In this document: positions 3,790-44,451 of the stretch, piece by piece
How the letters are laid out: each line of letters opens with the position of its first letter
Position numbering within the stretch: the stretch's first letter is position 1
DNA from: Brevinematales bacterium
GTDB lineage: Bacteria > Spirochaetota > Brevinematia > Brevinematales > GWF1-51-8
Direction: 5' to 3'
Assembly: GCA_020059465.1 (NCBI GenBank)
Contig: JAGVBZ010000025.1
Coordinates: 2,913 to 66,912 of the forward strand
DNA: 64,000 bases
Position numbers and translations under genes: made by a program
Notes under the pieces: model-generated
The model's input: only the letters and a program-made list of their open reading frames with translations
Database searches by the model: none
What the model was told of the DNA's origin: nothing

Positions 3790-4090
3790 AGAAAGTTTCG
3801 GGTAGAATAAACTTTTTACCCGTTCTCCTTAAAGAATTTTTATTAACCATGTCAATTTTCCTGCACAGTTTCCGCTGGATTTCAAGTCTGATTTTATCAA
3901 GTTTGACATACGCATCGAAGCCTGAATTCGCGCTTAAAAACCGCTCGTTAAGTTCATAGAGAATATCGATATCGCTTTTTTCCATTTCCGTATCTTTCGC
4001 GAATGAGCCGAAAACACCGATAATAATAAACCCTTCCGGTAAGTATTTTTCCTTCAGCGCTTTCAGGTTCTGAATAATCATCTCATTCAT
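3782..4090 (-). CDS. mntA: MntA-like nucleotidyltransferase antitoxin
   Basis: GVFGSFAKD...SDIDIL is the minimal nucleotidyltransferase GSx(n)DxD signature. The gene is paired with a DUF86 gene. Confidence 0.8.
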   Translation of the reverse strand: MNEMIIQNLKALKEKYLPEGFIIIGVFGSFAKDTEMEKSDIDILYELNERFLSANSGFDAYVKLDKIRLEIQRKLCRKIDMVNKNSLRRTGKKFILPETFYV

Positions 4091-4115
4091 AATTAATCCT
4101 ATCTCTTTTTTTAGC

Positions 4116-5663
4116 CTAATGCCGGAAGTGGCGTACGCTTGTGAATACCATCGCGATCCCTCGTTCGTTCGCCGCGTCTATAGACTCCTGATCGCGCATC
4201 GAACCGCCCGGCTGTATGATCGCCGTAATTCCCTCCTGGGCGGCGTTATCCACACTGTCGCGGAACGGGAAATATGCGTCCGACGCCATTACCGCGCCGT
4301 CGAGTGTAAAGCCCGCGTCATGAGCCTTCATTACCGCGATACGCGCCGAATCCACCCGCGACATCTGCCCTGCGCCCACCCCGATAATCTGTCCGTCCTT
4401 CGCGTACACAATCGCGTTCGATTTGACGTACTTACAGATTTTCCACGCGAATTTCATATCGTCGATAGTCCCGTCGGGGGCCTTCTTCGTCACGCAGTCG
4501 AATTTCTCGGTATCCATACCGGGCATATCCCATCCCTGCGCGAGCATTCCGCTCTCCACCCGGCGGTACGACGTGCCTTTCTTCGTCCAATCGTTCCCCT
4601 TTATCTCGATAATTCTGAGGTTTTTCTTTTCCTTTAGTATCTCGATCGCCTCCGGTTCGTACCCGGTCGCGATAATGATTTCGTAGAACCGTTCGTGTAT
4701 CAGTTTGGCGGTTTCCGCGTCGAGACGGGTGTTGAATCCGACGATTCCGCCGAACGCCGAGGAGGGGTCGCCGGCGAGCGCGCGTTCGTATGCGTCCCGT
4801 ACGTTCTTTCCCTCCGCCGCTCCGCACGGATTCGTATGCTTGATGATTACACAGAAACTCTTTCCGCCCGCGAACTCGCGCAAAATATCTATCGCGGCGT
4901 CGGTGTCCATAATGTTATTATAGGAGAGTTTTTTACCGCCGTGTACCTCGGAATTCAGGACAGAAATATTATCCGCGATACCCGAACGGTACAGCGCGGC
5001 CGCCTGATGCGGGTTTTCGCCGTAACGCAATTCCTCGGTGAGTTTCATCGGTATCGATCCTTCCGCCGGGAACGCTGTTTTTCCCGAACGCGCGACGAAC
5101 CATGAAGAGATCAGACCGTCGTAGTATGCGGTATGCCCGAACGCCTTTGCGGCGAGCGCGAGACGTGTTTCTTCCGATGTGGAACCTTTCTCATCGATCT
5201 CTTCCATTATGCTCTCAAAATCTGAGTTATCCACTACTATATTTACGAAACGGTGGTTTTTCGCGGCCGCGCGGATCAGGGTCACCCCTCCGATATCGAT
5301 CTGTTCGATAATATCCTCAGGCGACGCCTTCGGGTCGGCGGCGGTCTCCTCGAACGGATACAGGCTGACTACCACATACTCTATCGGCTCGATATTATGC
5401 TTTTTCAGGTCGGCGAGATGATCGGGATTATCGGTGCAGGCAAGGATTCCGGAATGCACCATCGGATGCAGGGTTTTCACCCGTCCGCCGAGCACCTCCG
5501 GGAACCCGGTGATCGCGCTGAGCTCGGTGACCGCGACGCCCTTGTCCTTCAGGTACTTATAAGTCCCGCCGCTCGATACGATCTCGTACCCGCGCCCGGC
5601 AAGGAATTCCGCGAATGTCTCTATTCCGTCTTTCTTATATACGCTGAATAACGCCCTTTTCAT
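4116..5663 (-). CDS. purH: Bifunctional AICAR transformylase / IMP cyclohydrolase
   Basis: 515 aa. N-terminal MGS-like region ALFSVYKKDG...GGRVKTLHP and C-terminal AICARFT region ending RHFRH. Confidence 0.95.
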   Translation of the reverse strand: MKRALFSVYKKDGIETFAEFLAGRGYEIVSSGGTYKYLKDKGVAVTELSAITGFPEVLGGRVKTLHPMVHSGILACTDNPDHLADLKKHNIEPIEYVVVSLYPFEETAADPKASPEDIIEQIDIGGVTLIRAAAKNHRFVNIVVDNSDFESIMEEIDEKGSTSEETRLALAAKAFGHTAYYDGLISSWFVARSGKTAFPAEGSIPMKLTEELRYGENPHQAAALYRSGIADNISVLNSEVHGGKKLSYNNIMDTDAAIDILREFAGGKSFCVIIKHTNPCGAAEGKNVRDAYERALAGDPSSAFGGIVGFNTRLDAETAKLIHERFYEIIIATGYEPEAIEILKEKKNLRIIEIKGNDWTKKGTSYRRVESGMLAQGWDMPGMDTEKFDCVTKKAPDGTIDDMKFAWKICKYVKSNAIVYAKDGQIIGVGAGQMSRVDSARIAVMKAHDAGFTLDGAVMASDAYFPFRDSVDNAAQEGITAIIQPGGSMRDQESIDAANERGIAMVFTSVRHFRH

Positions 5664-17855: not shown

Positions 17856-18872
17856 CTACTGAATTTCGAGCTTGCCCTTCAGATTGCCGTTTTTATAGAG
17901 AAGCTGCAGAATAGTGATAATTTCATCGGTGCTTGCCCCTAGCTTGTTCAGCCCGTCCGCGAGTTCCGCGACAGTCGCGCTGGATTTCATCACCTTAACG
18001 GTTTCGCTGGCATTCTGTCCGCCTGAGGAACCGCCCCAGCTTGCCGCGCCGCCCCCGACCTGCACCTTCGTCCCCTTGAACGATACCGCCGCCTCGGTAA
18101 TCATTACGTTCCCGCCCGAAACAATTACTCCCTGCTTCGCGTCGATCAATACCCTCGGCTCCTGATCGATATCCACCGACATTTTATTCAGTTCGAAAAT
18201 GAAGTCGTATATTTCCATCCCCGCGGGAATTTTCATCCGTATCTTGTAATTCTGCACTTTAGTAATCGCATCGGGGTACTTTTTCTGAATCGTTTCTTTG
18301 ACCTTACTGACCACGCCCATACCAAGCTTTTCGTTGACATAGATTGTCAACTGCCCGTTGGTATCGGTGATCTGGTGAAAAATCTCCTCCTGCACAATCC
18401 CGCCGAGAGGGACGATTCCGGTGACGCTCTTGGAGCCGTTCTCGACCATCAGCCTGCCCTGCGCGATCGCATATATCTGGTTGTCCCCGCCCAGCAGCGG
18501 CGTGATAATCAGTTCTCCGCCTTCCAGCGACTTCGCGTCGAAAACCGACGCCACACTCACATCGACATGACTCCCTATGGGGGCGAACGGGGGAAGCTGC
18601 GCGCTGACCAGCACGATTGCGGAGTTCTTCGGCTTCAGGAGCATGGGGTCGACATAAAACCCGAAATTATTCGCGATCATCGATAGGACTTCCTTTGTCT
18701 GCGACCCGGTCGTACTGTCGCCTGTCCCCTTCAGCCCGACCACAATACCGTAACCGAGGACAGGGTTGACCTGCATCCCTTCTATAGAGATAATATTTTT
18801 TAACGGTACGCTTTCCGCGAAAAGCCCCGCAGCGATAAAAACAAACAGTCCTGTTATGAATAAACCGCGCAT
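17856..18872 (-). CDS. flgI: Flagellar P-ring protein
   Basis: 338 aa with a signal peptide, VVGLKGTGDS, ITEAAVSF and a C-terminal LNKLGASTDEIITILQLLYKNGNLKGKLEI. Confidence 0.93.
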   Translation of the reverse strand: MRGLFITGLFVFIAAGLFAESVPLKNIISIEGMQVNPVLGYGIVVGLKGTGDSTTGSQTKEVLSMIANNFGFYVDPMLLKPKNSAIVLVSAQLPPFAPIGSHVDVSVASVFDAKSLEGGELIITPLLGGDNQIYAIAQGRLMVENGSKSVTGIVPLGGIVQEEIFHQITDTNGQLTIYVNEKLGMGVVSKVKETIQKKYPDAITKVQNYKIRMKIPAGMEIYDFIFELNKMSVDIDQEPRVLIDAKQGVIVSGGNVMITEAAVSFKGTKVQVGGGAASWGGSSGGQNASETVKVMKSSATVAELADGLNKLGASTDEIITILQLLYKNGNLKGKLEIQ

Positions 18873-18881
18873 TATTTTCCC

Positions 18882-19655
18882 CTATTTTTTAATCAGTTTC
18901 GCAATCAGCATTTTACCGCTGTTGATATTCTCTACCAGATAAGTCACATCGTCCAGTTTCCGGATGATCCGGGCCTCTACAGTAATTATCAGCCCGCCTA
19001 ATTTATACACGAGATAGGCTTTATAGTCCTGTATCTTATCGATATAAACCTCGTTATCAGCCGGCTGGATAGCATTGGGATACCCGGGCGCCGAGGGCAC
19101 AGTATTGTAGTTTGTCGGCCATACTGCAGCTGCCGCCGGAACAGCCTGCGGTAAGACCTCCGGCGCCTTCATCGGGAACGACAGCATCAGCATGGACGGG
19201 GTTCCCATTTCTTTCGTCAGATCGATATAATTCACCGACACGACTACTTTATCGCCTTTCATGTTATAGTCCGAGTTTACGATATAAAACTTCCCCGGGA
19301 GCATCTCCGGTTTCAATGCCGGCACAGCGTTGGGATATAGGGACAGAAGGCCGTTAATGATATCCTGCGCGGAGGACAGCGAAGGGATATACCGCAGGTC
19401 GATTCCGCTTCCGACTAAAGTAAAGTCCTTATATCCCGCGTTTTGAAACAAAACACCCAATTCTTTATTCGAAAAAACTTTACTCTTATCGGTGGGTATG
19501 ATATAATTACTTCCGAAGGGCGCATGACAAAGCGACGCGAGACTCATTTTAGGCTGAGTGGTATAAATAGTTTTCGGAAGATAGATCGTAATTGAAAAAC
19601 CGGGAACGCCCGTTAAAATCAGTAACATAATAATGAAAAATATTCGAACGCGCAT
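18882..19655 (-). CDS. flgA: Flagellar P-ring assembly chaperone FlgA-like
   Basis: 257 aa with a signal peptide. Lies immediately upstream of flgI with a 9-nt gap. The C-terminal VENINSGKMLIAKLIKK matches the conserved FlgA end (v-N-x-x-SGK-x-h-x-x-x-V). Confidence 0.7.
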   Translation of the reverse strand: MRVRIFFIIMLLILTGVPGFSITIYLPKTIYTTQPKMSLASLCHAPFGSNYIIPTDKSKVFSNKELGVLFQNAGYKDFTLVGSGIDLRYIPSLSSAQDIINGLLSLYPNAVPALKPEMLPGKFYIVNSDYNMKGDKVVVSVNYIDLTKEMGTPSMLMLSFPMKAPEVLPQAVPAAAAVWPTNYNTVPSAPGYPNAIQPADNEVYIDKIQDYKAYLVYKLGGLIITVEARIIRKLDDVTYLVENINSGKMLIAKLIKK

Positions 19656-19845
19656 GGAGATTCCTCCTCAATTCAATATCGGAATAAACCCTGAATAATG
19701 TAGTAAAAAGTACAGGCGGGGCGGGCGTTTGCACTTGTGCATTTTCGTGCGTAATGCCTACATGCAGGGGCAAATTCAATTATTAAACTTAGTATAAAAA
19801 TGGTATATACTTATAGCATATGTATTTAGAAATTTTTGCTTTTTT

Positions 19846-19861
19846 TGGCATAGTAATTGCA
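19846..19861 (+). promoter_or_regulatory. Sigma54-type (-24/-12) promoter element
   Basis: TGGCATAGTAATTGCA fits TGGCAY-N5-TTGCW, with GG and GC at the canonical 10-nt spacing. No + strand CDS follows. Confidence 0.45.
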
Positions 19862-19871
19862 TATTAATATT

Positions 19872-20000
19872 ACACCCCCCAATATATCTCTCGGCCTAGG
19901 CCGGGATTTCACCTCCTCGAAAGAGGAGGTGGTTAAAAAAAAGCCCCCTTAAATAAATGTCCAAAAAAGAAAACCCCTCTTGATTTGGGGTTTTCTTTTT
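19872..20000 (+). ncRNA. Candidate sigma54-dependent small RNA (~125 nt)
   Basis: Bracketed by the -24/-12 element and an intrinsic terminator. It holds three hairpins: CTCGGC-CTAG-GCCGGG, CACCTCCTC-GAAA-GAGGAGGTG, and AAAACCCC-N9-GGGGTTTT followed by a T-run. The only ORF is 8 codons with no RBS. Confidence 0.35.
19963..20000. terminator. Bidirectional rho-independent terminator
   Basis: AAAACCCC (19970-19977) pairs with GGGGTTTT (19987-19994). A T-run follows on the + strand (CTTTTT) and on the - strand (CTTTTTTGG). It ends the maeB-like/PNP/DUF503 operon on the - strand. Confidence 0.75.
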
Positions 20001-20292
20001 ATTCATGCACAATGAATTCGGTGCTGTATGAGTGAATGATGTCGGGGTGGAATCTCTCGACAAGATTATAAACGTTCGACAGGACGCTGTTCAAGTGATC
20101 GGTCTCGTTGGAAACCGCCGACACCGCTATGATGGTTTTCTGCCCGAAATGGTCTTCTTCGACAATCTCCGATACGCTGACGTTGAATTTCTTCCTGATT
20201 TTATCCTTGATGCTCCGCAGCAGATTCCGGCGTTCCTTGACCGTTTCCCAATGAGGGATATCGATTTGTATGGTGAGCAGTCCGATAATCAT
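19999..20292 (-). CDS. DUF503 (YlxP-like) protein
   Basis: 97 aa. MIIGLLTIQIDIPHWETVKERRNLLRSIKDKIRKKFNVSVSEI matches the DUF503 beta-alpha-beta pattern. Confidence 0.75.
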   Translation of the reverse strand: MIIGLLTIQIDIPHWETVKERRNLLRSIKDKIRKKFNVSVSEIVEEDHFGQKTIIAVSAVSNETDHLNSVLSNVYNLVERFHPDIIHSYSTEFIVHE

Positions 20293-22586: not shown

Positions 22587-25500
22587 TTGCAGTTAAGAAA
22601 GTTACTATTAGCTTTCTTTGTTGTAACCGGAACTGTGTCTTTAGCTTCTGCGGTCTGTATGAAAGGGGCGTACAATTCATGGACAAGCGTGAATTTTACC
22701 ACCACATACTCGCCGCCCGGGTATTGCCGGAACGTGATAACCGGGGTATCGCAGGGAAACACATTTATCGTCGGCGCGGGCATCAACGACGACTACACTA
22801 CTAAGTACTGCGGCGGTTATTGGGTTCCGGGTTCGGCCAATATGAACGCGGTATGGAGCCTGCCCGTCGGCGGCGCAGACGCGGCTTTCGATGGAGCGAA
22901 TTATTCACAGGTAAAAACTTATATCATTTTCGTATCGAGCACCGTCGCAAACGGCAACTTCGGTATCATGACCGTTTCCGGCAATCCAATCAATATTTCC
23001 GCAGTATCCGCGGGAACAGTTTACCCGCAATCCAATACTATAGTCAATCTCACCCTCTCCGGCGCGAAATGCGCGGAGGAAATCGTCTATATCCGTTACA
23101 GTACCAATAACTGGACGTCCTCGGCGTTCGTTCAGGCGACGGGCGGCGGTACCGCCTATACAGCCGTCGTACCCGGAATGCCCGGCGGTACTATTGTCAG
23201 GTACTACGCGCTGACCACATCGGCGAGTTCGGGAAACCTCGCGGCGAATCCCGACCTTCTCGCTATCAGCGTTAATAACAATAGCGGCGCGAACTATTCC
23301 TTTACTGTCCCGAAGACGACATGGCATACCGTTAAAATCGACGGGATAAACGATTTTTACACCAACGAGTGTTTCCCGACCACATCCGCAGGGTCGGGGT
23401 ATACCAACTGGATCACATGGGACAACAGCTATCTCTATATCGGATATAAGGGCGCGGATATCGCAAACGACCCCTTGGGGGCGGGAGTCCTCGTAATCTA
23501 TATTTCCACCAATACCAACACCGGGTCAGCGTACGGGGTATTGTATAATACGCAGAAACCCGTTCTGCCGTTCCGCGCGGATTACGTGTTCAATTTCGTC
23601 AACGATTACACATGGAACAGCGCGGTATGGAACGGTACCGCGTGGAACTGGAACTCGCCGTTCACCGTAATCACCGGCACCGACCTGAACCGGAACAGTA
23701 CCTATCTGGAATTCCGTATCAGCAAGTCCGACCTGAAGAATCCCGCAAATCTCGATATCTATCTTCAATTCGTGAAGAAAACCGTGGGTTTCGAATGGAC
23801 ACACGGCGCGGTGCCGTACAATACGCTGACCGACGGGTATAAAAGCAACCCGTCAAATTATATCTCCTTCAAGACGAATATCTGGAAGATCAGCAAACAG
23901 CCGTACCAATCCGCCTATAAAACTTTCGACCCCATTCCCCCGTACCAGAATATCCTGCGGTATCCCGTCAATAACCAGACGGTCTATTCCAACTACTCCC
24001 TGACAATGACCAATACCGCGCAGGATAAGATCGGGATATATAAAGTCGAATTTTACACCAATTACAACGGATTATACGGCACGGTCTATGTGACGAATTA
24101 CAACAGCAATTATACCAAAACTATTCCTCCGAACATCCTCAAACCCGGAACGAATCATTTCTACACGATCGCCTATGATACCCGGAATAAACTCTACTCC
24201 GCGACCAATACGGTAGTCGTCAAGGTGAATTCGCCGCCCCCCAAACCGGTGCTGACATTCCCGGTCAACGGCGATATGAACTTCTATCTCCTCAAGCCCC
24301 GGTTCAAATGGTATATAGGCGCGGATCCCGACGGGCAGGTAATATCCAATTACCAGATCATCGTCTCGATAAATTCGACACTGACCCCGCAGTACTTCAA
24401 TCATACCTTTGTCTCGACGTCGTCGAATTTCCTGACAATCTTCACCAATTACCTGCAGAATAACACTACTTATTACTGGTCGGTACGCGCAAACGACGGC
24501 ATCATATGGGGGCCGTGGTCGACTACCAATTATTTCCGGGTGAACCCCGCTTATATCAAGCTCGACGGCAGCCTGTCCGAATGGAACACATCCATCGGCG
24601 GAGTGAACACCGATTTCATCAGCAACGGGCAATGGATATGGAACGACAAGACGAACGACGCGGTGGTATCCGGCGACGCGCTGCCCTACGACCATCTCGA
24701 TATGCTGAAATTCGGGGTCACCGCCGATAAAAACTGTCTGTTCTTCATGTTCACCGTACCCGACCTGTCGGACGATGTGACCTACGACTCCCCACGCCCC
24801 TACATCAGCGTCTCGATCGACACGAACCTTGTAACCGGATCCGGGAATAACCAGACGGTCGAGAGCGAAGTGGGCACTCCCGCCGCCGCGAGATGGGAGC
24901 TTGAAATCATCGCGAATGTCGATGGAACCGGTTACTATACCGTTTCCGGGAGCACGACTAACTTTCACGAGTGCGGCGAAAACTGGATCACCCATTCGGC
25001 CCATCCCGGCCTGGGCGAGATCGCCATCCCGTGGGATGAGATGGGATTTAAATCGATCCCGCAGAAGCTGAATATTATCGTAAACACCGGGCGCGTAGTG
25101 GACGGCCTCGGGAATTACCATCTCCAGCCGATTTCCGGCGCGCCAAACTTCCTCGACTGTGTTTCCACCAACGATCCCGCGTCGGCGGAGTTTTCCGACG
25201 GGGTCAACAATATTTACATGAATATCTGCTTCAATACCAACGGATGCATCATCGAGACATCGTTCAAGGTCACCTGCCCGACCAACGCCCTCGCGGGAAT
25301 GCCGTTCCCGGTGGTGGTCAAAGCCCTTGCGCCGCTCGGCGGAAAGGTTTACGACTTCAACCGCGCGATCGTCTCCGCATTGTTATTCGGCGGTACGGCC
25401 TATGTCGTATCGAACACGGCATGGAAACAGGGCGTTTCCACAAACTATGTCGTCATCAATTACCTCGGTTCCAATAAAATCGTCATCCGCGACCAGCAGT

Positions 25501-27959
25501 TTACGAATATCGGCGGGATCAGCGGATGGATCGTGATCTACCGTCCCGACGTAGTCATAAACGAATTGATGTTCGACCCTGTCGGCGCGAATACCGACGG
25601 GCAATGGGTCGAACTGTTCAACCGCGAGAACAAGTCCGTATACCTGAACGGATGGGCTATTCACGATTACGACGTCGCCTTCCCGATGTATAAAATTACG
25701 AACGTAATAATTCTGCCGTCCTCGAATTATATCGTGCTGTGGGACGGGGCGGGTGTGAACGACCTCGATTTCTCCGACGGGCGCGGTATCCTCTACGGGC
25801 AATGGGGCGCGGCGCAGCTTTCGACCGCGCAGGACGAGGTCGGACTTTACTGCTCTTCTACGATGGAAAACCAGTACACCCTGATGGACTTTGTCGCTTA
25901 CGGGGCGGACGCGGGTACCGACGACGACCTTGCTGTGACGGCGGGCATCTGGACATCAGGCGCGTTCGCGTCGACGGCGCTCTACACCGAGGGGTCGTCC
26001 CTCGTACTTCTTCCCGACGGCGACGATCATAATCTCGCCTCCGACTGGACGGTCGACCATACCCCCACCCCGAAATGGGGCAATAAATATATCATCGCGC
26101 AGAATATTTCCAATACCGTGCAGACCAACGGCGCGTATGCCGGGACGATTATGCTGGCGTTCCAAATCCGGCTCCCCGACCCCGAGAACGACGCGGCCGC
26201 ATCGGGCGACCGTCTATCCAATATCGTCATCTGCCTCGGCGGGAATATCACGACCAACGGTATCCTCGAAGCCAAGCTCTGGAACGGCAACGGCGCGGGA
26301 CAGTTCAACTACGGATACCGGAATAACTCGGCGACCAACAACCTGCTGATGGGAACCGGGACTTATTCCAACGCGGTCAACGGATACGTATTCAAGAACC
26401 TCGCGAACAATCTCATCGCCGATTCGGCGGCGGGCGGATATATGACGGTCTATTTCTCGCTGAAGCTCGCGACCAATATCACCGCAGGGCAGACGGTCAA
26501 ACCCTTCATCCTGCCGAACAGTATCAGGATGCAGTCCGTGCCGGGCGAGTTTATCGGCCCGAAGGACAAAGGACTGACGAATTCGCAGTCGATGCCGATA
26601 AAACCCGGGTACTTTATCGTGTACGAGTACAGCGACGCGAAATGGGCGGGCGTAAACAGCTATCTCTACGACTTTATCGAAATATATAATAATTCCGCGG
26701 CCGGAATTACCCCGTCGGGATGGAATATATCGACCGCGCAGGGGAACGACAACCTCGCCTTCTTCCGGGGGTCGACGTTCGCGGCGGGTAATATGCTCCT
26801 GATATGCGGCGGGATAACCACAGCGCAGACGTTCACCAACTTCTACGCGGAGAATCCCTCGTCGCCGATCATGGCTCCCGCCTCCGGCACGAAGATCGCC
26901 CTGAACGGACTTGCCGCCGCGGATACGCCGTTTATCCTGCGCGAGAACACCACCATAATCGCAATCATTAATTATACGAACAATATTACAACCGCGAGCA
27001 ATACGGTCGAAATGATCAACCCGTGGGGAGGCCAGACCGCCGCGAATTATCAGGCGTCGTCGTATATCCATGGGACGCCGGGGTATCTCAACGGATTCCG
27101 GGCGATCGAAATGAGTCTCGCGAACGTATCCAACTACAGTCTCGATATCAATACGACAAACAACCTCGTGCTCGATTTCTCTATCCCGAACAATAACGGC
27201 GCGGCGGATACGCTGCAGATGATCACGATTAAGAATAACGCGACCGCGGTCAATACGGACGTGTCGTTCAAACTGTGGAAAGAGGGCGCGAGCGCGGGAT
27301 ACAACGGCGACGAGACGCTGGTCGGGAGCCTCACCTATCAGGGTTCCGGCCGATGGCAATGGAGCGGATCGACATCCATCCCGAATACGGGCGCGGTCAA
27401 GAAATGGAAATTCTATATTACAGCGGATGTGGCTCCGACGGTTCTGGACGGGAACATGGTCAAGCTCGGTGTGGAGGGGCTATCCCCGCCGGCGCCCGGC
27501 CCGTATACCGATAGTTTCACGATGGGCATCAAAGTTGCGAGCTGGAACGACGGCCCTGTCGACGGCGCTGTCTCAAATATATCGTACCAGATATGCGGCG
27601 TACCGTTCCTGACCCTTTCCAAAACGGTGCAGAGCGTTCAGGTAATGAATACCAACCTCGCACTGCCGGGGTCGCTCATCCTGTACAAGCTCGAGTATTC
27701 CAGCCTATCGAACGGACGGGCGTATCAGGTCGCGCTGTACGATAAAATTCCCGCTAACACCAAGTACTACACCAACTACGCGGGAACCGCCGCGGGATGG
27801 ACGGTGCAGTTCTCGCAGTTGGCAAATCCCGACCAGAGCTATAACTCATCCGACTATAACACAAATCCCACGAACGCGCTCTGGATACGCTGGAAAAAAG
27901 GGCTAGTATACCCGAACGAGGATAACCGGACGCTTTATTTAGGAGTAACATTAAACTAA
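22587..27959 (+). CDS. Giant secreted surface protein (1790 aa) with two lamin-tail-like domains, an FN3-like module and a C-terminal DUF11-type domain
   Basis: TTG start and a signal peptide ending ASA-V. LTD signatures are VVINELMFDPVGANTDGQWVELFNRENKSVYLNGWAI (about 25545) and DFIEIYNNSAAGITPSGWNIS (about 26670). The FN3-like segment is PPPKPVLTFPVNG...YYWSVRANDG. The DUF11-like end is LTLSKTV...PGSLILYKLEYSSLSNGRAYQVALYDKIPANTKY. Confidence 0.85.
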   Translation: MQLRKLLLAFFVVTGTVSLASAVCMKGAYNSWTSVNFTTTYSPPGYCRNVITGVSQGNTFIVGAGINDDYTTKYCGGYWVPGSANMNAVWSLPVGGADAAFDGANYSQVKTYIIFVSSTVANGNFGIMTVSGNPINISAVSAGTVYPQSNTIVNLTLSGAKCAEEIVYIRYSTNNWTSSAFVQATGGGTAYTAVVPGMPGGTIVRYYALTTSASSGNLAANPDLLAISVNNNSGANYSFTVPKTTWHTVKIDGINDFYTNECFPTTSAGSGYTNWITWDNSYLYIGYKGADIANDPLGAGVLVIYISTNTNTGSAYGVLYNTQKPVLPFRADYVFNFVNDYTWNSAVWNGTAWNWNSPFTVITGTDLNRNSTYLEFRISKSDLKNPANLDIYLQFVKKTVGFEWTHGAVPYNTLTDGYKSNPSNYISFKTNIWKISKQPYQSAYKTFDPIPPYQNILRYPVNNQTVYSNYSLTMTNTAQDKIGIYKVEFYTNYNGLYGTVYVTNYNSNYTKTIPPNILKPGTNHFYTIAYDTRNKLYSATNTVVVKVNSPPPKPVLTFPVNGDMNFYLLKPRFKWYIGADPDGQVISNYQIIVSINSTLTPQYFNHTFVSTSSNFLTIFTNYLQNNTTYYWSVRANDGIIWGPWSTTNYFRVNPAYIKLDGSLSEWNTSIGGVNTDFISNGQWIWNDKTNDAVVSGDALPYDHLDMLKFGVTADKNCLFFMFTVPDLSDDVTYDSPRPYISVSIDTNLVTGSGNNQTVESEVGTPAAARWELEIIANVDGTGYYTVSGSTTNFHECGENWITHSAHPGLGEIAIPWDEMGFKSIPQKLNIIVNTGRVVDGLGNYHLQPISGAPNFLDCVSTNDPASAEFSDGVNNIYMNICFNTNGCIIETSFKVTCPTNALAGMPFPVVVKALAPLGGKVYDFNRAIVSALLFGGTAYVVSNTAWKQGVSTNYVVINYLGSNKIVIRDQQFTNIGGISGWIVIYRPDVVINELMFDPVGANTDGQWVELFNRENKSVYLNGWAIHDYDVAFPMYKITNVIILPSSNYIVLWDGAGVNDLDFSDGRGILYGQWGAAQLSTAQDEVGLYCSSTMENQYTLMDFVAYGADAGTDDDLAVTAGIWTSGAFASTALYTEGSSLVLLPDGDDHNLASDWTVDHTPTPKWGNKYIIAQNISNTVQTNGAYAGTIMLAFQIRLPDPENDAAASGDRLSNIVICLGGNITTNGILEAKLWNGNGAGQFNYGYRNNSATNNLLMGTGTYSNAVNGYVFKNLANNLIADSAAGGYMTVYFSLKLATNITAGQTVKPFILPNSIRMQSVPGEFIGPKDKGLTNSQSMPIKPGYFIVYEYSDAKWAGVNSYLYDFIEIYNNSAAGITPSGWNISTAQGNDNLAFFRGSTFAAGNMLLICGGITTAQTFTNFYAENPSSPIMAPASGTKIALNGLAAADTPFILRENTTIIAIINYTNNITTASNTVEMINPWGGQTAANYQASSYIHGTPGYLNGFRAIEMSLANVSNYSLDINTTNNLVLDFSIPNNNGAADTLQMITIKNNATAVNTDVSFKLWKEGASAGYNGDETLVGSLTYQGSGRWQWSGSTSIPNTGAVKKWKFYITADVAPTVLDGNMVKLGVEGLSPPAPGPYTDSFTMGIKVASWNDGPVDGAVSNISYQICGVPFLTLSKTVQSVQVMNTNLALPGSLILYKLEYSSLSNGRAYQVALYDKIPANTKYYTNYAGTAAGWTVQFSQLANPDQSYNSSDYNTNPTNALWIRWKKGLVYPNEDNRTLYLGVTLN

Positions 27960-29630: not shown

Positions 29631-30686
29631 ATGAAAATCAGAAGAAGCCTGGTATCGCTAGCCCTGCTGACGGGCGCGATCACTGCTGTGCTGGTGATGT
29701 CGCCGTTCGGCGGACGCAGCGCGGAAGCCGCGCCTACCCCGGCGGGCACACCGATCACCAACACCGCCACCATGACATGGGGCGGAGGTATGTCCACCAA
29801 CGTGGCTACCACTATGCCGCGCGTCGGTACCAACTATGGGGGAACATGGTCGGGTAACAACAGTACGAATGTCGCACCCGGTACGCATTCGTACAACAAG
29901 ACCTCGTTCGTAAACGACGGAAACCTTGCGGTCAACTTTCAGTTCAGCGCGGGTGAATTTCATTCCGCCGCGCAGTGGGGTTCATGGTTCTATGAATACA
30001 CCAATACCGCCACTACCGCTCACGGTTTGCCTCTTACGGTAAGCATGTCGCCTCAGGCTGTGGTCACCACCCTTTGGTTCCATGTGTATGTGCCGGGCGC
30101 CGAAATCGACTCGTCCTACGCCCAGTTCAAATGTGTAGCCACCGGGCCGAACACCACCGCTATTGCCACGAACTATACGGGCTACAACGCTCTGCGCTAC
30201 GGCGGAAATATGGGGAAATGGGCCGCCGGCTTCGGTAAGGTTATCCTGACGAACACTACGGGTTCGGGCAACACGAACTGGAGAGTAACCGTACAGGCGG
30301 CCGTCATGGCGCTGACCAAGTATTTGATCATTTCGAACGCCGGGCCTTTCGCCACGGATACCACACGCCCGTTCCCCGGCGGCATCCTGATCTGGCGCCT
30401 GAATTATTCCAACGGCGGATCGGTTCCCGCGACAAGCGTTAAGATTGTCGACGTGTTCAACACGAACTTTGTGACGCTGAATATTAACAGTCTGAAGTCC
30501 AACACCTGGGGTTCGCCCTATCCGTGGGCCGCGGCCGCGTTTACAACCAACGCCGTAGGAGACCCGGGTGCGTCCACCAACGGCGCCAGCGTGATCTTCG
30601 CCCCGTTCACCACCACTCCGCTTAACGGCAGTACGGTCGGGGCCGGCGGTAAAGGCGCGTTTTACTACGTGAACTACGTGAAGTAA
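29631..30686 (+). CDS. Secreted DUF11-like protein (possible abundant structural subunit)
   Basis: AGGAGG at 29620-25, 5 nt before the ATG. The signal peptide ends AEA-A and is followed by PTPAGTPITNTATMTW. Composition is T/N/G/A-rich and visibly GC-richer than neighbours. Confidence 0.65.
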   Translation: MKIRRSLVSLALLTGAITAVLVMSPFGGRSAEAAPTPAGTPITNTATMTWGGGMSTNVATTMPRVGTNYGGTWSGNNSTNVAPGTHSYNKTSFVNDGNLAVNFQFSAGEFHSAAQWGSWFYEYTNTATTAHGLPLTVSMSPQAVVTTLWFHVYVPGAEIDSSYAQFKCVATGPNTTAIATNYTGYNALRYGGNMGKWAAGFGKVILTNTTGSGNTNWRVTVQAAVMALTKYLIISNAGPFATDTTRPFPGGILIWRLNYSNGGSVPATSVKIVDVFNTNFVTLNINSLKSNTWGSPYPWAAAAFTTNAVGDPGASTNGASVIFAPFTTTPLNGSTVGAGGKGAFYYVNYVK

Positions 30687-30779
30687 CACTGTTTAACGGA
30701 TTACGATATTAAGGCTTGACAAAATAGATGGGGCCGCCCCGAAGGCGGGCGGTTCCAGACTATTTAATGAGGTTGAAAT

Positions 30780-31784
30780 ATGAAATTTTTAGGGCTTATA
30801 CTATTTTTTCTCCCTGTGTTATGCTGGAGCAGTGTTCTATTAAAATATCAGGACGGGTGGTCTGCCGTATTGCGGCTTGACAATATGAAATCGTTATCCA
30901 AGCCCGTCGTATTCATCATCTATCATAAATCCATGACCAATTCCGCAATGATGATCGGCGATTCGCCGGAACATACGGTTCCGCTGACCCTGCCCGCCGG
31001 GGAGTGCGCCTATCAGGTGAAGGACGCGAATAAAAAAATTATCGAGCAGGGAAAACTATCCCTGAGCCTCCCGGTCGACGTAAAAATAAAATCCGTAGAA
31101 CCGAAAAAGGTCACTTTCAGCCTCTCGTCCGCGCAGGACATATTTGTCGAATGCTATCTGACGACCAATAATACGATCGCGCACTACCAGAGAATCGAGT
31201 TGAAAAAGCAGGGCGAGGCCGTGTTCTCCGGGTTGGCGTCCGGGACGGAATTTAAGGCCGAATTCAAGGTCAAGGATACCGCCTTCTCGAAATCGTTCAC
31301 TACCCCGCTTTTCAACGCCGCCCTCCATAAGCCGGTCTCCGGTACATTCAACCGTCTCCCGGAAAGCAAATTTGTCGACGATTCCACCCCCGCTATCACG
31401 AGGGTCAACGACGGGCTAGTGGAATGGTATAAGGGGATGGCGGTCAGCACGGAAGTGGGAATGGAAGCCCAGTATGTGATTATTAACCTTCTCGGCACGC
31501 ATCACCTGAAGAGCATGAAGGTCACATGGAACGCCAATTACTACCCGTTATCCTATTATATCATGTACAGCATGGACGGGGTGAAATGGGATTATTTCGA
31601 GCGGAAGGAGAAGGATTATCAGGCTTCCGCCGCGCCGGATAATTCTCCCATCAGGGTGGATGAATTCCCGGTATCGTTCGACGCGGGTTATATCGGGGTA
31701 TGGATCGATAAAAACGCCGCAATCCACGCACATCAGGATTATAAGAATTACTTACAATTAATGGAGATAGAGGCCTATGAATAG
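30780..31784 (+). CDS. Secreted protein with C-terminal discoidin (F5/8 type C) domain
   Basis: Signal peptide. The C-terminal half reads NAALHKPVSGTF...VIINLLGTHHLKSMKVTWN...LMEIEAYE. Confidence 0.7.
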   Translation: MKFLGLILFFLPVLCWSSVLLKYQDGWSAVLRLDNMKSLSKPVVFIIYHKSMTNSAMMIGDSPEHTVPLTLPAGECAYQVKDANKKIIEQGKLSLSLPVDVKIKSVEPKKVTFSLSSAQDIFVECYLTTNNTIAHYQRIELKKQGEAVFSGLASGTEFKAEFKVKDTAFSKSFTTPLFNAALHKPVSGTFNRLPESKFVDDSTPAITRVNDGLVEWYKGMAVSTEVGMEAQYVIINLLGTHHLKSMKVTWNANYYPLSYYIMYSMDGVKWDYFERKEKDYQASAAPDNSPIRVDEFPVSFDAGYIGVWIDKNAAIHAHQDYKNYLQLMEIEAYE

Positions 31785-33009
31785 GCTCGCGCTGATACTT
31801 CTGCTTGTCGTCTGCACCTGCACGCTGTCTCACGGGGCCGCCGGAACCCCTTCGGGAACTGTCCTCTCCAACATCTCCCGGATGGACTTCTATTACTGGG
31901 GTATCCCTTTCACGAATTATATTATGGATACGTCGCTGACAATGGGCAGTATCTACGGTATAGACGGAATCTATTCCCTCCCCGCGTATAACGGCTACCC
32001 GAATTATTCCGTGCGTATCGACCTGTATATGACCAACCTCGGGAACGACGCGGATAACGACGCCGATTTATTCGTCTCATCGTTCTCGAACTCCCCCGGC
32101 TATACGGCATCGCCGTGGAGTTACCATTTCGAGGTATTGTCGGTCAATGTCGGAACGAATTACTCGATCCCGTTCGCGCTTTTCGGGGTGGGCGCGGTAT
32201 TCCACGCGGTACTTGTGGTGGATATCCCCGCCGACGCCCCGACCAACTCGATGGGGTATTTCACTATCGGCGGTACGACGCTCAGCAACTCGAACCATGT
32301 GGCGGGAACATACACCGGATACAACGGGCTACCGTACGGCGGTAAGACACAGGCCGGAACGATGTTCACCGTGCGGGTGATCCCGCCGAACCGGATTGTC
32401 GACCTCTACGCGAGCGACGCGATCGATACGATCCGCCTTTTCGACGGGACTCTGTACCTGCGGAAGATCGAGAATTTTATATACGCACTGCTGAGGAATA
32501 CACCTGTCCGCGCGACCACGGTCAACCTGTGGTACGCGGTCGACAGTCTCCCGGACGGCCCGGGCGGGAATCCGGACGACGCGAGCGTACCGATGATCGA
32601 AATCTCGCAGAACCTGTATCAGGCGAAGATTCCCGAGAGCGCGGTCAAGTCCGGCAACTTCACGGCGTTTTTCCTCGAGATCGACGGGCTGAACTATATC
32701 ACGAACTTCACTTATCTATTGAAGGGCGTATACGAACAGGGTTATGAGACGATTGTGATGAATAATATTATCCCGCCGGGCTCGGCATATATCAAACTCC
32801 CCGACAAGACGCTCGGCAAACCGGGCAAGATTACCGTATACTCGATAGCGGGCGATATCGTACGCCACATATTCGACGGCGATATCGGGAATACGTTGTA
32901 CGGATGGGACGGTACCGACGATCAGGGCTTCATGGCGCAGACAGGGATATACTTCATCGTCGTCGATATCGAGAATCTGAAAGAAGTACGTAAAATTATG
33001 GTGAAATAG
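31777..33009 (+). CDS. Secreted protein with FlgD-Ig / T9SS-type C-terminal domain
   Basis: Overlaps the upstream gene by 8 nt. The signal peptide is followed by AAGTPSGTVLSNISRM. The C-terminus ITVYSIAGDIVRHIFDG...GWDGTDDQGFMAQTGIYFIVVDIENLKEVRKIMVK matches the FlgD_ig/CTD pattern. Confidence 0.7.
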   Translation: MNRLALILLLVVCTCTLSHGAAGTPSGTVLSNISRMDFYYWGIPFTNYIMDTSLTMGSIYGIDGIYSLPAYNGYPNYSVRIDLYMTNLGNDADNDADLFVSSFSNSPGYTASPWSYHFEVLSVNVGTNYSIPFALFGVGAVFHAVLVVDIPADAPTNSMGYFTIGGTTLSNSNHVAGTYTGYNGLPYGGKTQAGTMFTVRVIPPNRIVDLYASDAIDTIRLFDGTLYLRKIENFIYALLRNTPVRATTVNLWYAVDSLPDGPGGNPDDASVPMIEISQNLYQAKIPESAVKSGNFTAFFLEIDGLNYITNFTYLLKGVYEQGYETIVMNNIIPPGSAYIKLPDKTLGKPGKITVYSIAGDIVRHIFDGDIGNTLYGWDGTDDQGFMAQTGIYFIVVDIENLKEVRKIMVK

Positions 33010-33018
33010 GAGAACGGT

Positions 33019-34170
33019 TTGAACCGGAACCTGAGACCGCGAGCCGCCGGATTAATCCTGAGCCTGACATTTGTCTTCATTACTCTATCATATCCGCTGA
33101 CATCGGAATCGGACTTCCTGAAGATTCCGAAGAGCGCCCGCGCTATCGGCCTCGGCGACAGCTATACGTCCATTATCGGCGACACCACCGCGATCGAGTA
33201 CAATCCCGCCGCGATGAATACGATCGATAATCTCGCGCTGTCGTTCATGTACCAGTCGTGGATCGATAACGCTTATGCGTGCTATTTCTCCGGCGCGATG
33301 AAGATATACGACTTCGTGATCGGTACGAGCCTGTACTATGTGGATTACGGCGGGTTCAGCCATTACGACTCCTACGGGATGCTCCTGTCGGAGTATCAGC
33401 CCCACGATATCTGCTGGAAGGCCGCGATATCGATGGACGGCGGACTGCTGTTCGATTTCCTGACCGGGTTCTCGGTCGGTATAGGCGCGGGAGTGATCGG
33501 CAGGGGATTGGCGGACTTCGGGACATGGGGACTCACCGTCGATCTGGGGATCAATTACACGTTCACCCTCCAGCGGCTGGGATTCAAGTATGACGGCGAA
33601 TTATTCAGGATGCCGATCAACGCCGGATTCGCTATCCAGAACATCGGGTTTACCGGGGATTCGACCGCGCCCCTCAAGGGGACGCTCGGCATATCCGCCG
33701 GACTGGCGAAGGGACTGTACCTGTCGATGGATGTCGCGATCGAGTACGGCCGCCCGTTCCTGTATAAAATGGGTATCGAATACACTCTCTTCAATATATT
33801 AATACTGCGTACCGGGTTCAATCTCGGAAGGGACACCGGTAATCTCGCGTTCGGCCTCGGCCTGCGCTATCCGGAGTACTTCAACGACCTCCGGCTGGAT
33901 TACGCATTCTCGTATCTGGATACCCTCGGGAATAACCATAACTTCTCGGTGTATGTCGATTTTCCCGTTTTCGTCGACCATGTATCGCAGTACTATCAGC
34001 AGGGAATCTATCATTATCTTCATGGCGACTATGAGCTTGCGAAGGAGAAATGGCTAAAGGCGCTCGCTATTGATCCCGAAAATAAACTGGTACAGAAGAA
34101 GCTCCACGATCTGGAAAAACTGATGAAGCTCAATCAAATGATCGAGAATGAAAAAGGGATGTCGAAATGA
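33019..34170 (+). CDS. PorV/PorQ-family-like outer-membrane beta-barrel with C-terminal TPR motif
   Basis: TTG start. FLKIPKSARAIGLGDSYTSIIGDTTAIEYNPAAM matches the conserved PorV/PorQ N-terminal motif. Alternating G/aromatic strands follow. The tail YYQQGIYHYLHGDYELAKEKWLKALAIDPEN is a TPR unit. Confidence 0.7.
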   Translation: MNRNLRPRAAGLILSLTFVFITLSYPLTSESDFLKIPKSARAIGLGDSYTSIIGDTTAIEYNPAAMNTIDNLALSFMYQSWIDNAYACYFSGAMKIYDFVIGTSLYYVDYGGFSHYDSYGMLLSEYQPHDICWKAAISMDGGLLFDFLTGFSVGIGAGVIGRGLADFGTWGLTVDLGINYTFTLQRLGFKYDGELFRMPINAGFAIQNIGFTGDSTAPLKGTLGISAGLAKGLYLSMDVAIEYGRPFLYKMGIEYTLFNILILRTGFNLGRDTGNLAFGLGLRYPEYFNDLRLDYAFSYLDTLGNNHNFSVYVDFPVFVDHVSQYYQQGIYHYLHGDYELAKEKWLKALAIDPENKLVQKKLHDLEKLMKLNQMIENEKGMSK

Positions 34171-36428
34171 AAATCCGTTACCTGCTTTCTCTGCTGATAT
34201 TCATTGCGGGACTCGCGTACAGTCAATCCGATCCCGGCGGCTACGACAAGGCTCTCGAATGGTATAACAAGAAGCACTATGTCAAATCGGTCGAAATACT
34301 CAAGGAGTATATGGACAATTTCCCTCTCGACCCCCGCGCGCCCGAACTGCTGGAAAAGATGTATGAGAAGTACACAGAGTTCCAGATCGTCTATCTGCAG
34401 GGCAAGGAATTTTATAATAAAAAACTCTACCTGAAAACGATCGAGGAGTTTTCCAACGCGCTGAAAGTGGGTTTCAGCGATAAACTACAGTTCTACCTGA
34501 CCGAATGTATCCGCACCGTATTCGAGCTTGAGAACGGGTTTGTGCCGAGCACGGTCGCCGAGACCGCCGAGAGCCTGACCATCTCGTGGAATAGCGATCT
34601 CCTGACCAACGCCCGCGTCGTATTCGTGAAAAGCGAAAATATCCCGCTTCTCAATATGATCCATTACCTCAACGAGAACAAGATACCCGTCGCGCGGCTG
34701 GAAAAATATTTCACGCAGGGGAATATATTTAAATCGTTCACGGTGAACGGAACCAGCGTAACCGTCTCGAAAAATCAGCCCGCCGAATCCTTTCTCGTTA
34801 TCGTCTACCCCAAGACCGTGGAGGACGTCCGTTCCCAGCCCATCATCCGCATGGTAGTCACCAAGGAGCCGTCGATCCAGAATAAATTTCTCATGCTCGA
34901 ACCGATCCGCGATATCCCGCTCCTGCCGCTGTATACCAATATCCATATCATCATACCCGGCCAGCCCGAACATACGACCACCAATGTGACCGGTATTCTG
35001 ACGAAATACAGCAACCTGATCATCAGCCTGAATACAAACTCGATAACCAACCTGACTAACGGCAGTCTGACTAACGCCTACCTCAATGCCAGCGGGATTA
35101 AAACCGTTAACGGATGGGGCGCTTTCCCATGGTGGCTGCTGATTATCCTGCTACTGATTATCCTGCTTGTCCTGACGGGTTTAATTCTCCGGGAGAAACG
35201 GCGGCGGGAACTTGCAGGAAAAATCGAACAATGGAAAATGGAGAACGAGTACGATCTCACGGATGACGGCGCGGAGAAGAAATCCCCCGTGTTCAAGAAA
35301 AAGCCTGCGCCGAAAAAGAGCGCCCAACAGTTGAAAAAGCCCCTGCAGCAGGAAAAAAAGCCCGTACAGAAGAAAAGTTCGCCATCCGGAAAGAAATCCG
35401 CACCTGCCAAGCCGAAGCCCAAATCGGGTAACGCCCCGTCGCGCCCGAAGGGGAAGAAACTCCCCGCGGTCATTGTGCTTATTCTCAGCGGGGTAATCGC
35501 CGTATCCGCGCAGGAATTCACCGACGCCCCGGGATGGCGGGATTACGCGCAGAAGTCGCTCGCTCCAGTTGTATGGAATTATTATGTCGAACACGCCGGG
35601 ATTACCAACCTCCCGCAGTCCTACTATGACAACATCGCAAAATTCTACTCGTTTGAGAAAAGCGCACACCTGCCCCAGCATTACCTGAAAACCCTCGATT
35701 TCCTCCGCGAAACCGCGAATTATCTCCGAAATATATCGTCGGTCTATTTCAGGAATTTCGATTACGAGAATTACGCCCTGACATCGTTCATGGTGTATTA
35801 TATCGATAAGGATTATTCGTTTTTCTCGCAGTCCATCTCGGAACTGAAAAAAGCCAAGACGGAAGCGATAGCGGATAAGATATTACAGAAGAGCATCGAG
35901 TTTGAAAAAAAGGGGCTGTACCTCGGCGCAATTGTCCGAATCACCGGATATATGTCGTTATCGGCGAATATACAGCCCGATCTTTTTCAGCGCCTGAACG
36001 ACCTCTACGCGAAGAATAAAAAGGAAATATCGCAGTACGAGTACTTATCCGCGACCGCGCGGATCAATAAAATCCTTTATGACGGCGAAATCCCGGCGGT
36101 AATCAAGGATATCCTCTGTCTGAGGGAAACATTCGAATACGAGGCGCAGTTCGGTCCGTTGGAATCGTTCAGTTTGTTAAGGAAGGATGCGGTCGAATTC
36201 CTGCGTCTGAACTACCGGATTCTGCTTTACAACGACCTGCTCACCGAAGGATATAAATGCTACCTGAACTGTCAGCTTCAGCCCGCGAAGGAATGCTTCG
36301 AACTGGCGTGGCATATCGCCCCGAAGAAGGAATTGCTGCCTTCCATCGGAAGCAATATCGCGATGGTCAAGGGCGCGATGAGCGGAAAGGGAGTGCATAT
36401 CTATATCACCAACGCGCTTATTCCCTGA
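34167..36428 (+). CDS. Bitopic envelope protein: TPR/FN3-like N-half, TM, Lys/Pro-rich loop, second TM, unknown C-half
   Basis: ATGA overlap with the barrel gene, and a signal peptide. TPR-like YDKALEWYNKKHY; LTISWNSD (FN3-like); TM WWLLIILLLIILLVLTGLIL; KKPAPKKSAQQLKKP...PKPKSG; second hydrophobic segment LPAVIVLILSGVIAVSA-QE. Confidence 0.65.
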   Translation: MKIRYLLSLLIFIAGLAYSQSDPGGYDKALEWYNKKHYVKSVEILKEYMDNFPLDPRAPELLEKMYEKYTEFQIVYLQGKEFYNKKLYLKTIEEFSNALKVGFSDKLQFYLTECIRTVFELENGFVPSTVAETAESLTISWNSDLLTNARVVFVKSENIPLLNMIHYLNENKIPVARLEKYFTQGNIFKSFTVNGTSVTVSKNQPAESFLVIVYPKTVEDVRSQPIIRMVVTKEPSIQNKFLMLEPIRDIPLLPLYTNIHIIIPGQPEHTTTNVTGILTKYSNLIISLNTNSITNLTNGSLTNAYLNASGIKTVNGWGAFPWWLLIILLLIILLVLTGLILREKRRRELAGKIEQWKMENEYDLTDDGAEKKSPVFKKKPAPKKSAQQLKKPLQQEKKPVQKKSSPSGKKSAPAKPKPKSGNAPSRPKGKKLPAVIVLILSGVIAVSAQEFTDAPGWRDYAQKSLAPVVWNYYVEHAGITNLPQSYYDNIAKFYSFEKSAHLPQHYLKTLDFLRETANYLRNISSVYFRNFDYENYALTSFMVYYIDKDYSFFSQSISELKKAKTEAIADKILQKSIEFEKKGLYLGAIVRITGYMSLSANIQPDLFQRLNDLYAKNKKEISQYEYLSATARINKILYDGEIPAVIKDILCLRETFEYEAQFGPLESFSLLRKDAVEFLRLNYRILLYNDLLTEGYKCYLNCQLQPAKECFELAWHIAPKKELLPSIGSNIAMVKGAMSGKGVHIYITNALIP

Positions 36429-36430
36429 TA

Positions 36431-36637
36431 TCATCCCTCCTTCATAACATAGTTCACCACAAAATGGGTCGCGAGCACCTTATCGTTCAAGAGGACTTTT
36501 TTCATATCGTCCCGCGAGATAAACACGTCTTTTGTGGAGGTGTCTTTTATAAAAAGGTCGATCACCTTCTCATATTTCGGCAAATCGATCCATCCCGGTA
36601 AATCGTTCAATAAATCGGCTAATTTCATTAAATCCAT
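36431..36637 (-). CDS. Hypothetical small protein (68 aa)
   Basis: ORF convergent on the 753-aa gene and divergent from the paralog array. No motif recognised, so coding status is uncertain. Confidence 0.35.
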   Translation of the reverse strand: MDLMKLADLLNDLPGWIDLPKYEKVIDLFIKDTSTKDVFISRDDMKKVLLNDKVLATHFVVNYVMKEG

Positions 36638-36681
36638 GTTACTTCCCTCCTAAAAATCCGTAAATTTCTCTATGTATTATC

Positions 36682-36709
36682 TTGAATTTTTTAAATTTTC
36701 CACTATAAT
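36682..36709 (+). promoter_or_regulatory. Sigma70-type promoter of the first DcrB-like paralog
   Basis: TTGAAT (36682-36687), 16 nt, TATAAT (36704-36709). AAGGAG precedes ATG 36739. Confidence 0.55.
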
Positions 36710-36738
36710 ATGCAAAGAATTATTTTAAGGAGTTTTCT

Positions 36739-37302: not shown

Positions 37303-37345
37303 GAATAATAATCAAGCATAACATTTCATAACCCGGGAGGTTGTG

Positions 37346-40402: not shown

Positions 40403-40480
40403 ATATTTTCATGAACAGTTGAATTTTTTATGGATAGATGATACATTAATGTATACAAACTTAACTCCAAGGAGACCGAT

Positions 40481-40978: not shown

Positions 40979-40994
40979 TTACTCGAACATGTAT

Positions 40995-41026
40995 CCGGGG
41001 AACGGTTATGCCGTTCCCCTTTTTTC
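40995..41026 (+). terminator. Rho-independent terminator
   Basis: GGGGAACGG-TTATG-CCGTTCCCC followed by TTTTTT. Confidence 0.75.
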
Positions 41027-41068
41027 ATGTTTACCGGATAAAATTTCAGTACCTGACAGGACGACAAT

Positions 41069-41428: not shown

Positions 41429-41551
41429 ACATATTTTAGGGATGGGATATTTCCAACAGATTTTCCTTAAGGCCGCCTCTATTACCCTAAAGAAAATCTT
41501 CGACGTTACCGAATTATTTATAGGATCTAATAAAAACTATTGGGGGACATC

Positions 41552-42064: not shown

Positions 42065-42073
42065 GCCCGTCGG

Positions 42074-43564: not shown

Positions 43565-43690
43565 AACTAACTCCTTAATGGGATGGATAAATTATAACCT
43601 AAACCCTCTTTTTCCGCAATCTTTACTTTTTCCAATCGTTTACAAACTCCCTGTTCTATGCTATCATTTAGTAACAATCAAGGGACAATT

Positions 43691-44353: not shown

Positions 44354-44451
44354 ATATCCCCGGCGCGCATTTTTTCCGACGGAATATTTGATATTTCCGA
44401 TTTATAATGCTACATTCTAGGTACAGGATTTTTTACAAACGAGGAGGCTTT

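Follow-up and report, generated by a model that had tools for sequence, protein, structure and literature searches.

Does a gap between two genes of an uncultivated spirochete hold a small RNA gene of its own, transcribed by the sigma-54 form of RNA polymerase? The question arises from a 64,000-nt stretch of a Brevinematales contig (hereafter the window), for which a reading of the letters alone (hereafter the sequence-only reading) had proposed an RpoN-dependent small RNA (sRNA) on the + strand of a 343-nt gap between two - strand genes, labelled flgA and DUF503. The coordinates of the gap were borne out: it extends from the start of the gene in the flgA position (19655, - strand) to the stop codon of the DUF503 gene (19999-20001, - strand), and the DUF503 assignment was confirmed by Pfam. 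On comparative sequence grounds the proposal is supported, with each of its refuting conditions that the analysis covered having turned out in its favour, and we consider it likely that the gap carries a stand-alone sigma-54-type sRNA gene of ~125-130 nt (+ strand, ~19872-20000), the product of which would probably act in trans via its runs of C.

The predicted promoter, TGGCATAGTAATTGCA (TGGCAT-AGTAA-TTGCA), lies at 19846-19861 on the + strand with its GG at 19847-48 and its GC at 19859-60; read directly on that strand, it fits the -24/-12 consensus with the right GG/GC spacing, as had been claimed. It is the sole exact match to TGGCAY-N5-TTGCW on both strands of the 64 kb, where chance predicts almost none (shuffle mean 0.03, with at least one match in 3 of 100 shuffles). 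Allowing one mismatch added a single site, which is intragenic and does not exceed the chance expectation. Each related locus (L001, L003-L016, L018 and L019) had exactly one TGGCAY-N5-TTGCW, always in the homologous place. Conservation in relatives was one of the points on which the sequence-only reading had staked its proposal, and here TGGCAY, TTGCW and their spacing proved invariant in 11 lineages, while the 5-nt spacer and the flanks drift, with eight different spacers found among the lineages (AGTAA, AATTT, ATTAT, ATATA, AATAA, ATTAA, ACTAT and GCTTT). Neither rpoN nor an enhancer-binding protein was found in the 64-kb window or in ~150 kb of related loci, using GAFTGA and RpoN-box patterns in six-frame translations together with Pfam (PF00158 and sigma-54 domains) on 50 window ORFs, and a search of the literature on Brevinema with sigma-54 or rpoN yielded nothing useful.

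Upstream of this motif, the sequence-only reading had pointed to a palindrome as a candidate activator site. The palindrome is present (TGCACTTGTGCA, TGCAC-TT-GTGCA, 19730-19741, 116-105 nt upstream of the -24 T and thus ~-142 to -131 relative to the predicted transcript start), and it forms part of a cluster of half-sites phased with the sigma-54 motif. TGCAC/GTGCA half-sites occur in all 11 lineages near -116, -104 to -109, -93 and -78 from the -24 T, and between -130 and -65 they are 62 times as dense as in the remainder of the loci. The window itself has further half-sites at 19742-19775 that are weak and degenerate (GTGCG, ATGCA), at positions where relatives have the full GTGCA (-77 to -82). 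Since the half-sites keep their distance to the sigma-54 motif but not to the divergent flgA start, which lies ~45 to ~280 nt away, they belong to the sigma-54 promoter. NtrC-family activators recognise TGCA-type dyads, and the cluster can be read, as expected, as putative enhancer-binding-protein sites.

The spacing of the dyads varies among lineages (TGCAC-N2, N5 or N7-GTGCA). One of them, L013, carries TTGCATTATGCAA on the - strand of its locus (~3300-3312), where it precedes the -24 element by ~100-110 nt and matches the LuxO-type motif TTGCAWWWTGCAA perfectly; because dyad spacing differs between lineages, this likeness to a LuxO site is a resemblance and not an identification. Another lineage (L014) has a GC-rich insert of ~230 nt (~4060-4290) with strong hairpins (e.g., GGTCCCCGTAAGGGGGGC and CCTGGACTGGCGCCAGTCCCCAGG) between the enhancer-like sites and the flgA-position start, which the other lineages do not have and for which there was no gathering-level Rfam match.

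If position -12 is assigned to the C in the GC of the -12 element, the transcript start falls at ~19872, and the predicted RNA of the window, which represents the longer of two forms, would then span ~129 nt (19872-20000, + strand, with an inferred start). Its predicted fold has a minimum free energy (MFE) of -48.3 kcal/mol (z = -5.2; 0 of 200 shuffles fold as well) and reproduces the three hairpins that had been described, the last being a terminator (19889-19906, 19909-19932 and 19964-20000, respectively). Two C-rich stretches are single-stranded, namely ACACCCCCCAAUAUAU at the 5' end and AAAGCCCCCUUAAAUA in the core between hairpin 2 and the terminator, and these seeds, or C-runs, were unpaired in every fold made for the window and its relatives. 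The first belongs to the 5' end ACACCCCCCAAUAUAUC (seed 1, 19872-19888), predicted to be unpaired in the MFE structures, and the second to the family core, an A-run plus GCCCCCUUAAAUAAAUG (seed 2, 19935-19959, with AGCCCCCTTAAA at 19942-19953). Hairpin 1 is UCUCGGC-CUAG-GCCGGGA (19889-19906 in the fold), and hairpin 2, seen in both fold and alignment, is CACCUCCUC-GAAA-GAGGAGGUG (19909-19932) with a GNRA-type loop and with arms that read as anti-SD and SD look-alikes. The terminator (19964-20000) consists of the stem AAAACCCC (19970-77) and GGGGUUUU (19987-94) followed by CUUUUU, and in DNA terms AAAACCCC-N9-GGGGTTTT plus CTTTTT is present as described; a simple terminator scan missed it because the 9-nt loop exceeds the limit of 8 set in that scan.

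The unit is kept in 11 distinct uncultivated Brevinematales lineages, once per locus and divergent from the flgI operon. Close relatives, in which the protein encoded in the flgA position is 53-79% identical, keep the gene order malic enzyme, PNP, DUF503, gap, flgA-position gene and flgI; their RNA body (85 nt from the predicted start) is 88-98% identical to that of the window, compared with 48-63% for the upstream spacer, and their terminators change by paired substitutions, which answers in the affirmative whether the RNA and its hairpins are conserved. In distant lineages (FlgI 47-57% identical) the motif invariably lies ahead of the gene that precedes flgI and points away from it. The gene on the other side is different there: L012 has PSP1 together with a gene for a small lipoprotein, L014, L016 and L019 have a 197-aa gene and DUF4340, and L018 has SpoIID. 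Because the unit stays by the flgI operon while the other neighbour changes, it is linked to that operon and not to DUF503, and in most lineages the downstream gene is convergent, which speaks for a stand-alone unit. It is absent from this intergenic region in Thermospira aquatica, where the gap is only 108 nt.

Within the RNA, AAAGCCCCCTTAAA is invariant in 11 of 11 lineages, down to a FlgI identity of 47%, and occurs once per locus in 17 of the 19 loci. Common to the 11 lineages is the invariant block AAAGCCCCCUUAAA, with a GC-rich hairpin and a U-rich tail 15-22 nt further on. The short form (L012, L014, L016, L018 and L019) is ~60-70 nt long and has this block at its predicted 5' end, in the first 1-14 nt, plus a second C-run (AACCCCC or similar) in the terminator loop. 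The long form (the window, L001, L003, L005, L007 and L013) has ~70 nt inserted before the block, which supply hairpin 1, hairpin 2 with its core CCUCCUC-GNRA-GAGGAGG and, ahead of both, a new 5' end whose ACACCCCCCAAUA does not vary among the six lineages with this form. In its letters this 5' end (CCCCCCAAUAUAUCUC) is similar to the family core (CCCCCUUAAAUAUAUGUC) and thus looks like a duplicated seed. Trained on only the five short forms, a covariance model picked up the 3' module of every long form (six of six; E = 6e-4 to 2e-6), with no other significant match in 181 kb. Further afield, a scan of a genome collection with the PNP protein yielded a single true relative besides an unrelated locus from Clostridia, and a metagenome scan with ACACCCCCCAATATATCTCT returned only copies of two lineages already in the comparison.

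The three hairpins differ in how they are supported. A covariation check had been suggested by the sequence-only reading, and the terminator helix does covary: across 11 lineages it is 96% paired with compensatory changes in 10 of 12 pairs, a level reached in 0 of 500 shuffles and compared with at most 72% pairing in slid controls, in a test whose model-guided alignment was fitted to the structure and hence favours pairing. For hairpin 1 the support comes from one divergent lineage, L013, which has a different sequence (CCUGG...CUAGG) in the same place in its single-sequence fold; MAFFT misregistered this hairpin, and the covariation count therefore understates it. The 7-bp core of hairpin 2 (CCUCCUC/GAGGAGG) is invariant in all six long forms, with GAAA or GUAA as the loop, and this invariance means that there is no covariation support for it, while hinting at a sequence-specific role outside the model that we propose below. 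Since the unit as a whole is kept in eleven lineages, we predict it to be a real regulator and not a chance motif.

The gene on the flagellar side (18882-19655, - strand) encodes a 257-aa product with a signal-peptide-like N-terminus. Its earlier label, flgA, holds as far as position goes (upstream of flgI), but the protein had no match in Pfam, NCBIfam or a PDB profile search. With a pLDDT of 55, its AlphaFold model was too poor for a fold search, and its position beside flgI, as the sole pointer, suggests a FlgA-like role. Homologues of this protein were found in Brevinematales only (Brevinematales MAGs, GWF1_51_8), and an exact look-up of the window's version gave no match because the database version has a shorter start. 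The PNP protein of the window shares 86% identity with its counterpart in 'Spirochaetes bacterium GWF1_49_6', and FlgI homologues, down to 45-57% identity, were labelled Brevinematales, Brevinematia or Thermospira. Together these neighbouring proteins assign the window to uncultivated Brevinematales (Spirochaetota). Brevinematales are among the few spirochetes with a P-ring gene. In the window this gene, flgI (17856-18872, - strand), is next to the flgA-position gene, and it is kept across Brevinematales. FlgI orthologues are present in few spirochete species only, according to a recent phylum-wide study (bioRxiv 10.1101/2025.07.04.663154).

The divergent flgA-position/flgI operon has a -10 element of its own, TCCGATAT (19676-19683, - strand), which reads CCGATAT/A in relatives and lies 13-34 nt upstream of the flgA-position start codon in 11 of 12 lineages, Thermospira included. 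We call it sigma-28-type on the basis of GCCGATAA, which we take to be the sigma-28 -10 consensus. With this element in front of the flgA-position gene, the divergent operon looks FliA-dependent and the sRNA looks RpoN-dependent. Elsewhere in the window, downstream of a 1790-aa lamin-tail-domain protein (22587-27959) and of proteins with F5/8 type C (discoidin) domains, a long run of mostly + strand ORFs (29631-45483, including ORFs of 753 and 1019 aa) is almost without Pfam matches and has the look of a lineage-specific set of secreted or surface proteins.

The sequence-only reading had seen nothing in the unit that resembles known sRNAs, and Rfam 15 agreed, giving no family at the gathering threshold for the window and five related loci, including Qrr (RF00378), GlmY/GlmZ and RsaE. 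The best sub-threshold matches, ohsC (30.4 bits vs 50) and Gut-1 (24.8 vs 50), were to the terminator only or on the wrong strand and were rejected. Few sigma-54-dependent sRNAs are known (Qrr, GlmY/GlmZ, the CrcZ type and CJnc230 of Campylobacter), and, to our knowledge and judging by the literature searched, no example is on record for Brevinematales or for any Spirochaetota other than the pathogens. GlmY serves as a protein decoy and GlmZ activates glmS, while the C-runs of RsaE/RoxS (Firmicutes) and RepG (Helicobacter pylori) pair with G-rich ribosome-binding or leader sequences.

The Qrr RNAs of Vibrionaceae (sigma-54 + LuxO) are sigma-54-dependent sRNAs with upstream activator sites, the LuxO site being TTGCAWWWTGCAA (PMC10162802). 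The Brevinematales unit shares with them a small stand-alone RNA gene, a sigma-54-type promoter, TGCA-type dyads ~100-150 nt upstream, an invariant single-stranded seed and a Rho-independent terminator; it differs in that it has no sequence or structure similarity or Rfam match to them, comes from a different phylum, has dyads mostly of other spacings and is single-copy in the sequence examined. GlmY and GlmZ of Enterobacteriaceae (sigma-54 + GlrR) likewise have sigma-54 promoters and several conserved activator sites upstream (PMC3045617), but their architecture is another one, the unit has no Rfam match to them and nothing in it points to their roles. A physical tie between an RpoN-type sRNA and a flagellar gene is seen in CJnc230 (FlmE) of Campylobacter jejuni, which is RpoN-dependent and base-pairs to repress both flgM and a flagella-interaction regulator (PMC11187230). 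That RNA arises by processing of the 3' end of the flgE mRNA, whereas the Brevinematales RNA has its own predicted promoter and points away from the flagellar operon; the two do not resemble each other in sequence, and a flagellar role for the Brevinematales RNA is suggested by gene linkage only. Finally, in a comparison drawn from general background that serves as a lead, the unit has several unpaired C-runs (one of them in the short-form terminator loop) in common with the C-rich-seed sRNAs RsaE/RoxS and RepG, but these are not known to be sigma-54-dependent and the unit has no Rfam match to their families. Judged by these comparisons, the unit is Qrr- or GlmY/GlmZ-like in its predicted transcription, C-rich-seed-like in its predicted RNA and a member of none of these families, i.e., a previously undescribed candidate sRNA family of a known kind and with a restricted taxonomic range.

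In the model that we propose, sigma-54 RNA polymerase would bind TGGCAT-N5-TTGCA, an NtrC-family enhancer-binding protein would activate it from the TGCAC/GTGCA sites ~100-140 nt upstream, and transcription would stop at the AAAACCCC/GGGGUUUU terminator. The RNA would most likely act in trans, its C-runs pairing with G-rich, UUUAAGGGGG-like ribosome-binding sites in mRNAs and thereby blocking translation initiation, and UUAAGGGGG-like sites on start regions would be the sites expected under such base pairing. The weakest step is the last one, in which the role of the RNA would be tied to the control of flagellar or envelope genes.

A search for targets covered the window and the related operons. 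Elsewhere in the window there was no seed complement of at least 8 nt, the best duplexes in a duplex-energy scan of the window were at background level, and the flgA-position/flgI operon showed no conserved target site across the 11 lineages. The best non-self duplex in the window involves GCGGGGCUUUU in flgI (18826-18855, - strand; codons 14-17, +40), which pairs with the A-run and C-run at -21.8 kcal/mol; it is near background and not conserved, and was rejected. A lead noticed after the fact comes from L012, in which the ribosome-binding site of the small lipoprotein gene (UGUUUAAGGGGGAAAC-N6-AUG, 4082-4103, - strand of the locus) complements the sRNA seed, with 10 exact and 13 total base pairs to CCCCCUUAAAUAU. 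It is the only non-self seed complement in ~220 kb of Brevinematales DNA, in a gene that adjoins the short-form sRNA on its downstream side and has no homologue in the window.

That no mRNA target was found in the sequence searched also fits another reading, in which the same conserved sRNA binds a protein or the ribosome instead of mRNAs, for example with the CACCUCCUC/GAGGAGGUG hairpin or the C-runs titrating an RNA-binding protein. The stem of hairpin 2 is invariant in sequence in six lineages, which structure alone would not need. The short forms, however, do without hairpin 2 but retain promoter, C-rich core and terminator, so that the function shared by the two forms cannot depend on this hairpin. 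A base-pairing seed is typically a single-stranded, invariant and 5'-proximal C-run, and the RNA is predicted to have such an anatomy, which argues for base pairing with mRNAs; we regard binding to a protein or the ribosome as an unlikely alternative.

Base pairing aside, the RNA could be real but made by a sigma-70-type polymerase at an extended -10, with TGGCA...TTGC kept for some other DNA-binding protein. This we hold to be improbable. It draws on an AT-rich stretch between the -12 element and the start and on L019, in which the -12 element (4096-4111, - strand of the locus) runs with its TTGC into TGCTATAAT, a perfect sigma-70-type extended -10. The latter fits in L019 only, may be an overlapping second promoter that is absent in the other lineages, and would have a parallel in E. 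coli glmY, where sigma-70 and sigma-54 promoters overlap (PMC3045617). Against a sigma-70 origin, a promoter scan called no sigma-70-like + strand promoter at the locus in the window, and from one lineage to the next neither -10-like hexamers nor -35 regions are kept, in contrast to TGGCAY-N5-TTGCW, which is invariant with exact spacing. Moreover, an extended -10 needs TG only, and not TTGC plus TGGCA.

The unit might alternatively encode a small protein. The sequence-only reading had counted an 8-codon ORF (19957-19983) as the only one, which did not hold: a 31-codon ORF with a TTG start is also present (19857-19952), and the unit contains a strong SD-like GAGGAGG. The 31-codon ORF, however, has its start codon within the -12 element, before the point at which transcription is predicted to begin; in L005 a substitution in a loop introduces a stop, in L007 the frame is shifted, and L013 and all short forms lack the ORF. 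The 8-codon ORF has ATA in place of its ATG in L007, and its length differs in L001 and L005. L016 has no ORF of at least 6 codons in the unit, and no start codon lies 5-12 nt after GAGGAGG. Judging from this lack of any conserved reading frame, the unit is non-coding, and the chance that it encodes either small protein appears very small.

Slimmer still is the chance that a fortuitous sigma-54-like motif lies beside an ordinary bidirectional DUF503 terminator with no separate gene between them: although the terminator of the window is bidirectional, overlaps the DUF503 stop codon and serves that gene too, which upholds to this extent the earlier explanation of it by the convergent - strand operon, the motif is at the same place in 11 of 11 lineages, the ~85 nt that separate promoter from terminator hardly vary, and in five other lineages, where the neighbour is not DUF503, the unit persists and the hairpin has its U-tail on the sRNA strand only. 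Both the small-protein reading and this last one are contradicted by the comparative data.

Returning to the stand-alone sigma-54-type sRNA gene, its fixed place beside the sigma-28-type flgA-position/flgI operon, kept while the other neighbour changes, suggests a flagellar or envelope role. We can thus picture, tentatively and as a possibility to which we give modest odds at best, a regulator that would act as a sigma-54/enhancer-controlled checkpoint of flagellar or envelope assembly by silencing mRNAs with G-rich ribosome-binding sites, and whose long form would owe its origin to a duplicated C-rich seed and a newly gained SD/anti-SD hairpin. If this were true, it would be a second, independent invention of the link from RpoN via an sRNA to late flagellar genes that is seen in Campylobacter. 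A sigma-54-driven sRNA is not surprising in itself, but the comparative case for this one is strong, and with evidence that covers promoter, putative activator sites, seed, terminator and two forms, the unit is a candidate for a new Rfam family. For the organisms themselves, the predicted sRNA would offer an entry to sigma-54 use in an uncultivated spirochete order, and to the cognate activator and its signal, as well as a handle on a possible coupling of post-transcriptional control to the P-ring/flagellar operon.
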